From Escherichia phage pEC-M719-6WT.2, in the sequence record OQ845958.1: a DNA stretch of 64,000 nt; one strand, 5' to 3'. Of the stretch, positions 2,798 through 9,980 are shown in pieces. Every line of letters begins with the position of its first letter. Position 1 is the first letter of the stretch. Position numbers and translations under genes: made by a program. Below the pieces are notes generated by a model. The model searched no databases and was not told where the DNA came from. It worked only from the letters and a program-made list of their open reading frames with translations.

Positions 2798-3546
2798 TTC
2801 TTCAAGTCCTTCTCAACTAACGATAAAGCAATACCTCGTTCGATAGGAATCATGTGCATGATGCTATCCAGTGTATATTGATTCTTTACCAGTAAGTGGT
2901 TAATTTGATAAAATACAAAGACTTCATCCGGGTTAAGGATAAGCTTAAAGACATCAATCAAGTCTGTATATTCGGTTTTGTGTTTTTCGCAGCAACCATA
3001 TGTAAATGGAATATAAACCGAATGCATTTTCTTAAGAAGCTCTTCGAGGCTCTCTATATCAATTGCATCGATAACTTGCATCTTTGTTTCTTCGGGAAGG
3101 TCTTCCCAATTGTATTTTTGTTCCGAGTCTTCGACGGTCTGAATGGTATTCAAGACAAGCTCTGACTTATCTTTATATTCCACTTCAGGGAACTTAAATT
3201 GTATTTTTATCCCCGCGGTTTCCATTGTTGGATTTGTCAATGGACCTTGACTCATATTAAACAAAGTCTGCTTTGTCTTTTTACATTTTTGACATTCAAA
3301 CGCTACCGGGACTTTTGTCTTACCGATAGAGGAAGTGAATACCTTCAGGAATATGTAAGGCCTCCATGCTTTTGGATACTCTCCAAAATAATCTTCCAAC
3401 AGTTCGTCTAATAATTGTTTTTGTTCTTCGACGGGTTTGTTGTTCATGTCGTTTCGCACAAGCAGTAAATCACGGTAATCAGCGACTGTAAACGGTTTGA
3501 AACGATGAACTCCGTCTGGCATTTCACATCTTACGATATTGGCCAT
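2794..3546 (-). CDS. 51: Baseplate hub assembly catalyst gp51
   Basis: 250 aa (T4 gp51 249 aa), position between 27 and 26, late promoter TATAAATA 25 nt upstream. Confidence 0.85.
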
Positions 3547-3570
3547 AGAATCCCCTTTTATCTTTATTGA

Positions 3571-3582
3571 TATTTATAAATA
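3571..3582. promoter_or_regulatory. Overlapping divergent late promoters for genes 51 and 26
   Basis: TATTTATAAATA: TATAAATA 3575-3582 on plus (gp26 ATG 18 nt downstream) and TATTTATA 3571-3578 (TATAAATA on minus, 25 nt upstream of gp51). Confidence 0.6.
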
Positions 3583-3599
3583 CAGTAAAGGAGCAAATT

Positions 3600-4223
3600 A
3601 TGACTTATGAATTTATTGTCCAAATTAAAAATAAAACTATAAATTGTAGGGCTTTTACCTTGCGCGAATACAAAGATTTGCTTCAGGCAAAATTAGAAAA
3701 GCGTATGGAACCTGCAATAATTGAACTGCTTAATAAATGCACTGATGCTAAAGGGTTAAACAAACAGGAAGCCGAGCTGCTTCTTATTAATCTCTGGGCA
3801 AATAGTCTCGGAGCTGTTAACGTCGAGCATACATGGGTATGCGAATGCGGAAAGGAACAAGATATTCCTGTGACTATAAGTCGTGCAAGCATCGTGGATG
3901 AGTCTGAAGTTATTCGTGATTTCGGGGCATTTAAAATTAAATTCCGTTATCCTGGGTTGTTTGAAGACGGCGATAAAGGTAAAATGATTGCTTGTTGTAT
4001 CGAATATATTATCACGGAAGGTGGCGAGCGCATCGTTGTTGATGACTTAAATGAAGCCGAAATCGAGGACCTATACAACGCAATTACCCTCGATGATATA
4101 AATGCACTAACCGAAGAACTTCTCAAGCCACAGGTCCAAATGGCTATTCCTATCTCTTGCGAGTGCGGAGCGCATTCTGTCCATGTAATTAAGGGGCTTA
4201 AAGAATTCTTTAAGTTTATGTAA
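3600..4223 (+). CDS. 26: Baseplate hub subunit gp26
   Basis: Start moved to ATG 3600 preceded by AAGGAG RBS; about 207 aa (T4 gp26 208 aa); abuts gene 25. Confidence 0.8.
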   Translation: MTYEFIVQIKNKTINCRAFTLREYKDLLQAKLEKRMEPAIIELLNKCTDAKGLNKQEAELLLINLWANSLGAVNVEHTWVCECGKEQDIPVTISRASIVDESEVIRDFGAFKIKFRYPGLFEDGDKGKMIACCIEYIITEGGERIVVDDLNEAEIEDLYNAITLDDINALTEELLKPQVQMAIPISCECGAHSVHVIKGLKEFFKFM

Positions 4224-5334: not shown

Positions 5335-5445
5335 ATGAAAAATATTAGTAAGATTCTCGACGAGATGGTTATCTCTGCAAACCGAATAACTGAAATTGTT
5401 AATGAGATGAAAGCTCGTGCTGCTATTATGAAGAGCACTAAATAG
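5335..5445 (+). CDS. Hypothetical small protein (36 aa)
   Basis: Short ORF with TAAATG overlap with the upstream gene; below the track size cutoff; weak. Confidence 0.3.
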   Translation: MKNISKILDEMVISANRITEIVNEMKARAAIMKSTK

Positions 5446-5698: not shown

Positions 5699-5926
5699 TT
5701 AGAAATCTTCGTCTTCGTCGTCGTCCATATCCTCAAGCTCGGCGCGTTTACCGGCAAGAGCATCACGAACACTGATATCATCGGAATCTTTTAGTTCAGC
5801 TTCTTTGCTGCGTTTTTTATAATAGCCTTCCAACTCCTTCAGACCGTCCATGGTCTGACAGGAACCAATCTTAGCCATAAAGCCTTCAATTGATGCTTCG
5901 TACATAATTTCTTCGAAGGATTTCAT
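5699..5926 (-). CDS. uvsW.1: UvsW.1-like small acidic protein
   Basis: 75 aa acidic C-terminus; position 3' of uvsW as in T4. Confidence 0.55.
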   Translation of the reverse strand: MKSFEEIMYEASIEGFMAKIGSCQTMDGLKELEGYYKKRSKEAELKDSDDISVRDALAGKRAELEDMDDDEDEDF

Positions 5927-6621
5927 TATATTTCCACCTGTTTAATTAAATTTCTGATTTTATATAAAGAAAGCCCCGTTGCTACAGAAGCTTGCTTCAT
6001 CGAACCATATTCAATCCCGTTTAAAACCACTTTCTTAGCGGCAGGATTTTTGGATGGGTCTTTATAACGTTCTTTTGCTTTATCTGAAATTTTCTTTGAT
6101 GCTTCTGGTGTATGTGATTTACCATACATCCAATTACCTTCACCTTTATTTCTTTCAGATATAGCTTGACATTGTGCTTGAGAGTATTTATACGGATTCG
6201 CTTTCTTTGTCGCAGATATTTTATCGGCCCAAGTTATTTTGCGACCCTTCAATAATTGGCTCATATATTCTTTATGTTCTTCAGTATGGTGCTTACCATA
6301 AAAAGGATTACCTTCACCAGTTTGAAGAGCTGACATTTGCCTACGCTCCCATCCATACGATTTATTAAATTGTCGTTGATGTGTCCGAGAGCTCATACCC
6401 ATAGCAATGACGGCCTTTATAAGACCGTAATGATTAGGATGAATTTTGGCCAATAATTTATGTGCAATAAAATGTTCTTCCGGAGTAAGGTTGACTCTGT
6501 TTTCTTGTGTATCAGGTCCACCCATACATTCTGGAATAATATGGTGAGATTCCGTATATCCAATTGGTTTGGAAGCCTTTCGGCTCCCAATTAAATCATC
6601 ATATATTTTTTGATAATTCAA
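5926..6621 (-). CDS. Free-standing HNH homing endonuclease with NUMOD3-like repeats
   Basis: HNH signature (HHIIPECMGG..N..H) at N-terminus; two GEGN(P/W)(F/M)YGK.HT.E repeats; start/stop overlap uvsW and uvsW.1. Confidence 0.8.
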   Translation of the reverse strand: MNYQKIYDDLIGSRKASKPIGYTESHHIIPECMGGPDTQENRVNLTPEEHFIAHKLLAKIHPNHYGLIKAVIAMGMSSRTHQRQFNKSYGWERRQMSALQTGEGNPFYGKHHTEEHKEYMSQLLKGRKITWADKISATKKANPYKYSQAQCQAISERNKGEGNWMYGKSHTPEASKKISDKAKERYKDPSKNPAAKKVVLNGIEYGSMKQASVATGLSLYKIRNLIKQVEI

Positions 6622-8117
6622 ATTTCCACCTGTTTAATTACATAGTTAAACCGTTCATCAGCATATCTTTGTATACGTTCAAGGCCATGCTTTAGGGCAA
6701 AGTTCAAATGAACATATTTCTTTTTAGCATTTGCCGATTTAGGTTTAACACCCATATCGTCAACGATATCAAAAACGTTTGCTTGTGATTTGGATTCATG
6801 TTTTCGAAGCACGCGGCCAATTGTCTGGAGTACAATTACCTTTGACTTGACCGGGTGAGCGAAAATAATATGATGGAGGTTTTTAACGGAAATACCCGTC
6901 GAGAATACACCGTATGAAGCTACAACAATAATTCCTTTTCCATTCTCTGCCATGACCTTTAATGCATTACGAGTTTCGGTATCAACTTCCCCGGAAACAT
7001 AATACACTTTCTCATGACCAGCTTCCTTAAGCATTTCAAACATCGATTTGCCATGCTCGATATTCTTAAACATCAAAAAGACGTTTTCATCTTTTTTAGC
7101 AAGCTTGAGAGCAAGATTTGTTACCCATTTATTTCGGCGTGTAGCTTTTGTAATTACCTTAATTTCATCCTGATAAGTTTTACCTTTCATTTTAACGGTA
7201 AATTCATCAGGGTAACGAAGGAAAATACTATTTATTTTAAGGTCAGTAACCTGTCCATCTTCCATCAATTTAGATGTGGATACTGGTTTAAAGATATCAC
7301 CAAACAGACCCATATATTGCATAAGGTTGGCTTTGCCGTCACGGAGTGAACCTGACAAACCAAATTTAAACGTACAATTCGTAAGGCCTTCGATAACCGT
7401 CGAAATTGATTTACCTGTCGCCATATGACATTCGTCATTCATAAACTGGCCAAACTGTTCAAACCATTCTTTAGGTTGTTTTACAGCCGTCTGATAAGTC
7501 GATACATAAATCATCGCATCAGAATCGCGTTTGGTACCAGAACGAATACCCAGACAAGCTTCACGAGGGAACAGACGATAATCAACAAAGTCATTAATCA
7601 TCTGGTCAACGAGCGCAGTTGTAGGAACAAGGATAAGTACTTTGCCTTCATAGTTCTCGAGATAATATCGCGCCAGAAGCGCCTGGATGAGACTTTTACC
7701 TGCAGACGTAGGTAAGTTCAGAATCTTTCTTCTGTTGACCAGACCATCATATACGGCGTCAGATTGATACCAATGGGGAGTTATCTTGGTATTGCCTGAA
7801 TAGATTTCTTTTGACTCGACCCATTTGTCGAATTCTTCGCGAGAGATTTCTTCTTTCTCTGTGATTTGTGGGTCAATCCAGAATGAATAGCCAAACTGGT
7901 CAGCGAACTTTTTAATTTGATTAACCAAACCGTATGGTAATTTACGATTGTAATCCAGGAGGCGGATTCGTCCGTCCCAAACTCCCTGCTTGAATTTTGG
8001 ATTGAAGCGATAGTTTTCAGCTTCGAAGCTGAAGTAATCACGGAGTTCGTAGAAGATTCCATCTTCACATTCAACATGCACGTGACTAAAATTTAGAAAG
8101 TTGATTTTAATATCCAT
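6618..8117 (-). CDS. uvsW: UvsW DNA/RNA helicase
   Basis: Strong match to T4 UvsW (NLPTSAGKS Walker A, DECH box); track start is a GTG extension, start set to ATG 8115-8117 (MDIKINF). Confidence 0.95.
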   Translation of the reverse strand: MDIKINFLNFSHVHVECEDGIFYELRDYFSFEAENYRFNPKFKQGVWDGRIRLLDYNRKLPYGLVNQIKKFADQFGYSFWIDPQITEKEEISREEFDKWVESKEIYSGNTKITPHWYQSDAVYDGLVNRRKILNLPTSAGKSLIQALLARYYLENYEGKVLILVPTTALVDQMINDFVDYRLFPREACLGIRSGTKRDSDAMIYVSTYQTAVKQPKEWFEQFGQFMNDECHMATGKSISTVIEGLTNCTFKFGLSGSLRDGKANLMQYMGLFGDIFKPVSTSKLMEDGQVTDLKINSIFLRYPDEFTVKMKGKTYQDEIKVITKATRRNKWVTNLALKLAKKDENVFLMFKNIEHGKSMFEMLKEAGHEKVYYVSGEVDTETRNALKVMAENGKGIIVVASYGVFSTGISVKNLHHIIFAHPVKSKVIVLQTIGRVLRKHESKSQANVFDIVDDMGVKPKSANAKKKYVHLNFALKHGLERIQRYADERFNYVIKQVEI

Positions 8118-8145
8118 GATGATTCCAAGGTAATAAATATATCTA

Positions 8146-8153
8146 TATTTATA
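8146..8153 (-). promoter_or_regulatory. Late promoter (TATAAATA on minus strand) for uvsW
   Basis: Plus-strand TATTTATA about 30 nt upstream of the uvsW ATG. Confidence 0.5.
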
Positions 8154-8171
8154 CACTAACCGAGGTTCATC

Positions 8172-8846: not shown

Positions 8847-9980
8847 ATGGCTTATACCGTAGCTATTGCTCCTTTGGCGGCTACGGCCGTTATTGGAGCA
8901 ACAACCAATTTCACTGCAACCGGCTCTGGTGCTGCAGCTGAAGGTGTTGAATCATTTGTATGGACCGTTGATGGCGTTCCTCAATCTTCTGTGACTGCAG
9001 CAATGGATTATGTCGCTGTTGGCCCAGCAGGCAGTAAGACTATTAAAGTTGTTGCAACTACCACTCCGGCAGACGGTGAACCGGAAACTGCTGAGGCTGA
9101 GACAACTTTAACTATCCAGAATAAAACAATGCCTGCTATTACATTGACTTTAGACCCTGCCTCTGTTACTAAAGAAGTGGGGCAATCTCAAGTTGTTACT
9201 GCTAACGTGACAGGCGCTCCTTCTGGTGCAACAATCGCTTACGTTTGGAAACGTAACACTAGCGTAATCGCAGGTCAAACTGGTAAAACTATTACCGTCA
9301 CCGAATCAGCAGAAGCAAATTATACATTGAACTGTGAAGTTACTGTTTCTGCACCCGATTATAATAATGGCACCGCATCTAAAGGAGCTGCGGTAACTTT
9401 TGTTAAGAAAACTATGTCGGGTGTTTCTGTTACTTTAGCACCGACCTCTATTAATGTTCCTGAAGGAACTCCGGCTTCTTTTAAAGCTACTGTAGCCGGT
9501 GCGCCTGCTGGTGCTACTTTTGCCTATTCTTGGAAGAAAGATGGTTCACCAGTCGCTGGTACCACGGATACTTTGGCAATCGATACAAGCGCCGAAGGTT
9601 CCCAGTTAATTGAAGTTTCTGTTGTTGTATCTGCTACAGATTATAACCCTGTAACCGTTACCAAAACTGGTAATGTAACAGTCACGGCTAAAGTCGCACC
9701 AGTTCCAGATGGCGAATTACCATATATTCACCCATTGCCAGTACGTAATTCAGCTTATATCTGGTGTGGTTGGTGGGTTATGGATGAAATTCAGAAAATG
9801 ACTCTTGCTGGGCAAGACTGGAAAACTGATGACCCAGATAGCCCGTATTATTTGCACCGATACACACTTCAAAAAATGATTACCGACTATCCAGAGGTTG
9901 ATGTACAAGAATCTCGTAATGGTCGAGTTATTCATCGCACCGCTTTAGAAACTGGTATTATATACGATTACGTTTATTAA
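8847..9980 (+). CDS. hoc: Hoc, highly immunogenic outer capsid protein (Ig-like repeats)
   Basis: 377 aa; C-terminal region matches T4 Hoc (YIWCGWWVMDEIQKMT, YYLHRYTLQKM, ESRNG). Confidence 0.9.
   Translation: MAYTVAIAPLAATAVIGATTNFTATGSGAAAEGVESFVWTVDGVPQSSVTAAMDYVAVGPAGSKTIKVVATTTPADGEPETAEAETTLTIQNKTMPAITLTLDPASVTKEVGQSQVVTANVTGAPSGATIAYVWKRNTSVIAGQTGKTITVTESAEANYTLNCEVTVSAPDYNNGTASKGAAVTFVKKTMSGVSVTLAPTSINVPEGTPASFKATVAGAPAGATFAYSWKKDGSPVAGTTDTLAIDTSAEGSQLIEVSVVVSATDYNPVTVTKTGNVTVTAKVAPVPDGELPYIHPLPVRNSAYIWCGWWVMDEIQKMTLAGQDWKTDDPDSPYYLHRYTLQKMITDYPEVDVQESRNGRVIHRTALETGIIYDYVY

Follow-up and report, generated by a model that had tools for sequence, protein, structure and literature searches.

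The mobE gene of bacteriophage T4 is a free-standing endonuclease gene located between nrdA and nrdB, the start of which overlaps the stop codon of the upstream gene, and translational coupling has been proposed for it (PMC2988022). Its product is an experimentally supported HNH homing (nicking) endonuclease, which nicks nrdB of phage T2, and polymorphisms at the nick site protect the MobE carrier (PMC2790892). A second free-standing homing endonuclease of T4, SegE, flanks and targets uvsW (PMC2988022, Table 1). As a rule, the cleavage sites of the known free-standing endonucleases of T4 are hundreds of bp distant from the endonuclease gene, and I-TevI was described to remain bound to one of the cleavage products, which biases co-conversion to the other side of the break (PMC2988022).

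Here, we consider an open reading frame (ORF) at the junction of uvsW and uvsW.1 in Escherichia phage pEC-M719-6WT.2 (OQ845958.1), of which a stretch of 64,000 nucleotides (the window) was analysed. A sequence-only reading had taken this ORF for an HNH homing endonuclease gene inserted between the two genes, and the polymorphic 692-bp insert and the intact motif described below, both seen at the level of sequence, support it. Full-text literature searches found no published description of, or experiment on, an endonuclease at uvsW/uvsW.1. Judging from sequence comparisons and a structural model, the product of the ORF is very probably a site-specific HNH homing endonuclease that belongs to the MobE-like Mob family of T4 and is encoded by a free-standing gene; it would home by the mechanism proposed in the last section.

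The uvsW/uvsW.1 junction and its insert

The ORF listing places the endonuclease ORF at 5926–6621 (231 aa), exactly where it had been claimed, and adds that it is encoded on the minus strand and runs from a TTG start to a TAA stop. It is preceded by the uvsW helicase gene (6618–8117, minus strand, 499 aa; Pfam UvsW_N at 1e-39, ResIII and Helicase_C) and followed by uvsW.1 (5699–5926, minus strand, 75 aa; Pfam PF11637 UvsW-1 at 1.6e-24), and the order uvsW, endonuclease ORF, uvsW.1 is co-directional, with all three genes on the minus strand. The probable ATG of uvsW is at 8117; the listing extends this frame to a GTG at 8156, and in annotated relatives uvsW is a 1500-nt CDS. The 3.9-kb region is 97–98% identical to TH40, DK-13, UPEC01, and SP18, which are SP18/VR-type T4-like phages of the genus Gaprivervirus. 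Both junctions were read correctly from the letters alone: the TTG (6621–6619) overlaps the uvsW stop (6620–6618) in a 4-nt TTGA, within the minus-strand sequence ...GTG GAA ATT TGA, and the TAA (5928–5926) shares one base with the uvsW.1 ATG (5926–5924), within ATA TAA TG. It is also true that T4 has no gene at uvsW/uvsW.1 and that its segE is on the other side of uvsW, between inh and uvsW (T4 locus; PMC2988022, Table 1). In the window, segE is absent, the gap between inh and uvsW being only ~55 nt, and tblastn found no paralogs of the endonuclease. The ORF is not a chance reading frame, as shown by 1051 homologs at E ≤ 1e-5 and by dN/dS values of 0.02–0.14 against orthologs, pairs with a dS of ~0.9–3 included; on these sequence data the protein is maintained under strong purifying selection, and the ORF is intact and of full length in all carriers.

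The alignment of this junction in T4-like genomes, which had been suggested together with the first reading, defined the insert with exact borders. It comprises 692 bp (5930–6621), and removing it restores the empty junction of RZ, MN01, and phage 212. In Gapriverviruses that do not carry the ORF, the uvsW stop directly overlaps the uvsW.1 ATG (TAATG). The insert is associated with an exact 19-nt direct repeat on the minus strand, TAATTAAACAGGTGGAAAT, the upstream copy of which (6622–6640) is the 3′ end of uvsW, and the downstream copy of which (5930–5948) encodes the last residues of the endonuclease, (I)KQVEI. Since copies of the uvsW tail are present on both sides, the insertion is not strictly intergenic. 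Each copy holds a Shine-Dalgarno-like AGGTGG, at 6626–6631 before the endonuclease TTG and at 5934–5939 before the uvsW.1 ATG. The final six codons of uvsW (IKQVEI) and its original stop thus close the endonuclease ORF, so that the ribosome-binding site of uvsW.1 and the stop/start overlap are kept. The tail duplication is seen in Gaprivervirus, Dhakavirus, Tequatrovirus, and Bragavirus, where the last five to six endonuclease residues are those of the native uvsW tail of the respective genus (IKQVEI, MKQVDL, KTVNL, and KEVKL, in this order). The uvsW tail located upstream of the gene differs in HY03 (KEVKL), PSD2002 (KEVQI), and P479 (KHVEL); Roth67, NM4.3, and Rgz1 are without the tail duplication.

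Universal presence at this junction would have spoken against an insertion, and the ORF is missing from T4 and from Gapriverviruses of 96–98% identity (EAWsc9, RZ, MN01, UPEC07, ECML-359, phage 212, VR20, and others). The TAATG junction was seen in nine non-carrier loci: EAWsc9, ECML-359, UPEC07, phage 212, RZ, MN01, and three IMG/VR loci (L015, L016, and L026). Orthologs (E < 1e-40) were found in 74 of the ~784 phage records matching the region. The occurrence of the gene is sporadic and extends to at least seven T4-like genera. Eight carrier loci from seven genera were fetched, namely Gaprivervirus, Dhakavirus (PSD2002), Tequatrovirus (HY03), a Klebsiella T4-like phage (Roth67), Moonvirus (NM4.3), Gualtarvirus (Rgz1), and Bragavirus (PM2), and the gene is always at the uvsW/uvsW.1 junction. 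A second, different HNH lineage occupies the same junction in 26 records, among them P479, Yersinia P8, Bp7, AbTZA1, and Enterobacter and Acinetobacter T4-like phages.

Diverged tracts and a candidate target site in uvsW

Carriers and non-carriers diverge in the uvsW 3′ end that borders the insert (6622–6800, minus strand), and this stretch may represent a co-conversion tract. When five Gaprivervirus carriers were compared with six non-carriers, the divergence was 0.164 and 0.156 in the 200 nt beside the insert (6622–6821), ~0.03 elsewhere in uvsW, which equals the within-group diversity, and on the side of uvsW.1 it was 0.019. Binning by 30 nt places the start of the tract at about -180. Between HY03 and T4 the divergence was 18–42% over the final 150 nt of uvsW, 0–4% elsewhere, and 1–3% in uvsW.1, and in PSD2002 compared with its Dhakavirus relatives the tract runs from about -240. 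In all three genera the tracts, 150–240 nt long, are on the uvsW side only, with none in uvsW.1. Their distal ends vary (-150, -180, and -240) and the gene-proximal end is constant, as in co-conversion tracts. The distal boundary was considered as a marker of a fixed break site, and this was rejected because the boundaries differ among genera; for the same reason they look like variable resection end-points. Nor did a common donor tract, moving with the gene between genera, hold, since in the sampled genomes the tracts are only 0.67–0.73 identical; as the tracts of different genera are unlike each other, their donors are unsampled. Hitch-hiking of linked variation and selection for immunity cannot be told apart in these tracts. 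The Gaprivervirus carriers are only five genomes and possibly go back to a single historical event.

At 11 positions, carriers and non-carriers have no allele in common: six of them are in 6645–6660, one is at 6696, and four are at 6783–6786. The first group, referred to here as cluster A (minus strand, 24–39 bp from the junction), consists of six substitutions in 16 nt, with GCTGATGAACGKTTTAAC in carriers and GCAGACGAAMAATTCAAT in non-carrier Gapriverviruses. Against EAWsc9, the closest non-carrier with 2.2% background divergence, six changes were found where 0.34 were expected (P ~2e-6, or ~2e-4 after correction for window number). Four of the changes are silent and the remaining two fall in one codon, exchanging Q for R. 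Cluster B (6783–6786, minus strand) consists of four contiguous fixed differences, TCA CAA vs TCG ACC, and is close to the distal edge of the diverged tract. On the sequence pattern, cluster A is a candidate for the cleavage or immunity site, and in this it is comparable to the polymorphisms that mark MobE carriers around the nick site in nrdB; linkage alone could produce its association with the gene. Since the known free-standing enzymes usually cut hundreds of bp away, a site at 24–39 bp is not the default expectation. The one-sidedness of the uvsW tract may be likened to that known for I-TevI.

It could be argued that the gene descends from a homing endonuclease that no longer homes, and that it is kept as an immobile nuclease for the benefit of the phage, be it marker exclusion of competitors, degradation of foreign DNA, or recombination together with UvsW/UvsW.1. 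The strong purifying selection and the tight fit within the uvsW/uvsW.1 operon, with its translational signals preserved, would agree with such a role, and genes derived from homing endonuclease genes can be repurposed, as exemplified by odn in ICP1 (cited in PMC10448857). However, the sporadic presence of the gene among near-identical genomes and the gene-linked tract in three genera indicate recent mobility, and we regard this explanation as rather improbable. It also overlaps with the homing explanation preferred here, since homing brings about marker exclusion as a by-product.

The protein, its start codon, and its expression

The HNH catalytic domain was assigned to aa 1–75 (6397–6621, minus strand) from alignments and the similarity to MobE, and the HNH motif to aa 22–54 (6460–6558, minus strand), with H26, H27, N41, H50, and H54. 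The N-terminal motif HHIIPECMGG...N...H, named already from the letters alone, is present: in a 53-sequence alignment M1, Y3, E24, H27, P30, C32, G35, N41, E49, H50, and H54 are invariant and H26 is invariant or nearly so, and a second family alignment of 35 sequences likewise showed H27, N41, H50, and H54 invariant and H26 invariant or nearly so. The spacing of the motif is H-x13-N-x8-H-x3-H, as in colicin-type HNH. The proposed domain search gave a divided answer, as NUMOD3 was found well above its gathering score and HNH was not: Pfam HNH (PF01844) scored 13.7 bits against a gathering score of 21.4 (E = 0.071), and further HNH tests were therefore needed. One family member, P0073, has a precomputed PF01844 match, and the protein matches PHROG 655, "homing endonuclease," at 6e-57. 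BLASTP aligned aa 1–73 with T4 MobE at 58% identity (E = 1e-27), and in many T4-like phages tblastn matched the genes mobE and mobD. When the first 85 residues were searched as a profile against solved structures, almost all matches were HNH domains, including McrA (5.8e-5), a group II intron maturase (1e-3), Cas8f-HNH (1.4e-3), IscB, and pyocin AP41 (range to 1.5e-3), and H27 is placed opposite the HH in the HNH domains of McrA and the maturase. The AlphaFold model (mean pLDDT 88.3) has, at pLDDT 95–98, strands at 24–27 and 42–45 and a helix at 47–60, in beta-beta-alpha order.

Following the HNH domain, the two claimed NUMOD3-like repeats were recovered as two stretches matching Pfam PF07460 (E = 1.1e-19; 70.4 bits against a cut-off of 20.4), and the model places them in a helical region. 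The first, GEGNPFYGKHHTEEHK..., spans aa 102–129 (6235–6318, minus strand), with the core GEGNPFYGKHH at residue 102; the second, GEGNWMYGKSHTPEASKK..., spans aa 160–187 (6061–6144, minus strand), with the core GEGNWMYGKSH at residue 160 and the best Pfam stretch at 152–179. At the C-terminus, aa 198–229 (5935–6030, minus strand) are predicted by the model to form a beta-beta-helix-turn-helix DNA-binding module of the I-TevI kind, and the top fold matches include the I-TevI DNA-binding domain, GVE2 HNH, and I-HmuI. According to sequence and model, the protein combines an HNH domain of the MobE type with a DNA-binding region of the I-TevI type.

The CDS in the RefSeq annotation of SP18 and in UPEC01 begins at Met33, giving 199 aa and cutting off H26/H27. 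If this start were the true one, the product would be a catalytically dead DNA binder or regulator, with NUMOD3 and helix-turn-helix elements and no HH. The use of Met33 in these two public annotations, the weakness of TTG as a start, and the AGGTGG being only 4 nt upstream of it can be cited in favour of such a product. Yet the TTG, the most upstream start available, coincides with Met1 of the whole family: the consensus opens with MNYQKIY precisely there, with little or no variation at M1, Y3, E24, H26, and H27. Orthologs use TTG (PSD2002 and HY03), ATG (Roth67, Rgz1, and P479), or GTG (NM4.3 and PM2) at the same position, and every ortholog start compared has the NTGA overlap with the uvsW stop. 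The alignment with MobE begins at residue 1, residues 1–30 have a pLDDT of 96–97 in the model, and the long form is annotated in DK-13 and PSD2002. A dead DNA binder is therefore very unlikely, and from these comparisons the Met33 start is almost certainly an annotation error. Several public records already label the gene as a homing endonuclease; other labels are "hypothetical protein," "group I intron endonuclease," and "GIY-YIG." Least probable of all is a decaying remnant, that is, an inactive, degenerating gene that became fixed in a sub-lineage and has since been carried along by drift, for which there are precedents in the defunct endonucleases of T4, e.g., I-TevIII, and against which stand the ORF intact in all carriers, its low dN/dS even at dS ~0.9–3, and the invariant catalytic residues.

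Expression of the gene can be approached through its surroundings. A pattern search located the T4 late-promoter consensus TATAAATA at 8146–8153 (minus strand), 29 nt upstream of the uvsW ATG; the pattern has 22 matches in the window vs 5.35 expected, and this copy is the probable promoter of a uvsW/endonuclease/uvsW.1 transcript. No terminator-like sites were found on the minus strand between the three genes. The weak TTG, the AGGTGG situated 4 nt before it, and the overlap with the uvsW stop suggest, by analogy with mobE, low-level coupled translation of the endonuclease. Other signals that were considered were not supported. An RNA hairpin over the TTG start, its stem kept in eight orthologs, had an MFE z of only -2.0 and a covariation term of +0.55, and the stem overlaps the conserved MNY...DDLI codons. 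An internal late promoter, TATAAATA at 6185–6192, occurs in Gaprivervirus and Dhakavirus carriers and not in HY03, involves two synonymous sites only, and is not significant. A programmed frameshift fusing UvsW to the endonuclease, the latter being in the -1 frame, was rejected, as GAA-ATT-TGA offers no usable X-XXY-YYZ heptamer in the frame of uvsW.

Proposed homing and comparison with known systems

In the homing mechanism proposed for the MobE-like endonuclease, the gene would be transcribed together with uvsW from the late promoter at 8146–8153 and weakly translated from the TTG, through coupling or re-initiation, with use of the AGGTGG within the uvsW tail. During mixed infection with a phage lacking the gene, the C-terminal module would bind the conserved uvsW-tail/uvsW.1 junction, and the HNH domain would nick or cut within uvsW, some tens of bp upstream and inside or close to the cluster at 6645–6660. 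Recombination-repair of the phage would next copy the endonuclease gene, along with 150–240 nt of the donor uvsW 3′ end, into the broken genome. The carrier itself may be protected in two ways, by the insertion, which would split the binding and cutting sites, and by the mostly silent cluster A substitutions. It is proposed that the element supplies uvsW with a new tail and that its own frame runs on into the resident tail and stop, and as a result the C-terminus of UvsW, the ribosome-binding site of uvsW.1, and the stop/start overlap would be kept.

A broader reading is that the last uvsW codons serve two or more HNH lineages as a common insertion point, each embedding by tail capture, with cutting unusually close to the gene (24–39 bp) in an I-TevI-like manner of binding here and cutting there; this is put forward tentatively, as a possibility that we consider more doubtful than the homing function itself. 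If it is true, then uvsW, where SegE is also present as in HY03, is bracketed by endonuclease genes, and foreign alleles replace its C-terminal 50–80 codons time and again. The endonuclease gene appears to be an ordinary selfish gene of a known T4-phage family, and the general understanding is unchanged. It adds to the T4 homing model system an uncharacterised HNH endonuclease and a candidate target sequence, and the natural replicates in three genera would provide a clean example of one-sided co-conversion. The locus also shows how a selfish gene can be seated in a translationally coupled operon without harming it, and it explains a local mosaic in uvsW that otherwise confuses the phylogenies of coliphages considered as therapeutic candidates. 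What is new, as read from the sequences, is the correct start codon, the tail-duplication architecture, the replicated one-sided tracts, the candidate target/immunity site, and the junction common to two HNH lineages.

Among the described enzymes, I-HmuI of SPO1 (PDB 1u3e), an HNH nicking endonuclease, has weak similarity to the present protein; it is intron-encoded, its DNA-binding sheet is N-terminal to its HNH domain, and it has no NUMOD3 pair. The likeness to I-TevI is limited to the DNA-binding domain, predicted here, whereas the catalytic domain of I-TevI is GIY-YIG and not HNH, the enzyme is intron-encoded, and it has a zinc finger in its linker. SegE is, like the present enzyme, a free-standing endonuclease encoded next to uvsW, and in HY03 segE and the HNH gene bracket uvsW; unlike it, SegE belongs to the GIY-YIG family and its gene is 5′ of uvsW. 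The "Mob-like HNH" endonucleases of the P479/Bp7/AbTZA1 type share the uvsW/uvsW.1 junction and the 4-nt start overlap. In P479, the first 11 residues (MNYQKIYDDLI) and the IKQVEI tail are identical to those found here, and uvsW has the carrier-type alleles of cluster A. However, the P479-type protein has 261 aa, is ~52% identical over the first 59 residues only, has no NUMOD3 match, and clears the Pfam HNH threshold.

The most extensive set of likenesses is to T4 MobE, and it comes with clear differences. The target of MobE is nrdB, whereas the ORF described here has its site and, by the sequence pattern, its candidate target in uvsW; no significant similarity extends past residue 73, and the present ORF has a TTG start and finishes on a duplicate of the upstream gene's tail. 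On the other hand, the HNH domains are 58% identical (aa 1–73), the start overlaps the stop of the upstream gene in both, the order from an N-terminal HNH domain to a C-terminal DNA-binding region is the same, and both systems have carrier-specific polymorphisms in a neighbouring conserved gene (for MobE, PMC2790892). In sequence terms, the gene at uvsW/uvsW.1 is a typical free-standing Mob-like HNH homing endonuclease gene and apparently a functional one.

Annotation of the endonuclease gene, uvsW and uvsW.1

The HNH gene lying between uvsW and uvsW.1 (5926-6621, minus strand) is treated unevenly in public records. In the SP18 RefSeq entry (YP_003934820.1; 1428-2027 of the fetched locus L001) and in UPEC01 (1427-2026 of L009), the CDS has 199 aa and begins at Met33, and because this methionine was taken as the start, H26 and H27 of the HNH motif are lost from both. 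Product names also differ between records, from hypothetical protein to group I intron endonuclease and, for Nispero and Metamorpho, GIY-YIG homing endonuclease. The T4 RefSeq record (NC_000866.4) still carries a single fused CDS of 587 aa for uvsW and uvsW.1 (3178-4941 of L006); resequencing resolved two ORFs (PMC1524935).

For uvsW itself, the ORF listing runs upstream to a GTG at 8156 (8118-8156, minus strand). The start is likely the ATG at 8117, since the resulting 1500-nt CDS equals that of relatives. The late-promoter motif TATAAATA lies within this spurious extension (8146-8153, minus strand). A second copy (6185-6192, minus strand) falls within the endonuclease coding sequence, with uvsW.1 about 260 nt downstream of it; it is retained in all Gaprivervirus carriers of the gene and in the Dhakavirus carrier PSD2002, and is absent from HY03. 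This copy may serve uvsW.1 as an internal late promoter, or it may have arisen by chance.

Variation around the insertion

The phage EAWsc9 (L002), which does not carry the gene, is a mosaic of carrier and non-carrier alleles over the equivalent of 6645-6800, in the diverged 3' end of uvsW. Carrier alleles occupy most of this tract, and non-carrier alleles are found precisely at clusters A (6645-6660) and B (6783-6786). Further away, the hoc-like gene (8847-9980, plus strand) turns hypervariable at 9100-9400, with a pairwise diversity of 0.25-0.35 among Gapriverviruses otherwise 97% identical, independently of the presence of the endonuclease gene. A 36-aa CDS is annotated in relatives between uvsY.-1 and uvsY.-2 (836-946 in L002, L003, and L008); the corresponding interval is present in the window at about 5335-5445 (plus strand).

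Other nuclease genes at uvsW

The uvsW/uvsW.1 junction also hosts a separate lineage of HNH endonucleases of 261 aa (26 records), represented by phage P479 (1427-2212 of L003) and present further in Yersinia P8, Bp7, and T4-like phages of Enterobacter and Acinetobacter. The P479 protein and that of the window are identical over residues 1-11 and both end in the tail IKQVEI, which suggests that one endonuclease replaced the other by recombination at this site. In Proteus phage PM2, an extra ORF of 291 aa (746-1621 of L047) divides uvsW into two CDSs; it may be another nuclease insertion, given a weak, sub-threshold N-terminal match to a TnsA-like endonuclease (E=2.6e-4). In HY03 (L004), uvsW is flanked on both sides, by a SegE-type GIY-YIG gene upstream (876-1493) and the HNH gene downstream (3001-3693), an arrangement that matches what has been called a "HEG island" in other phages.
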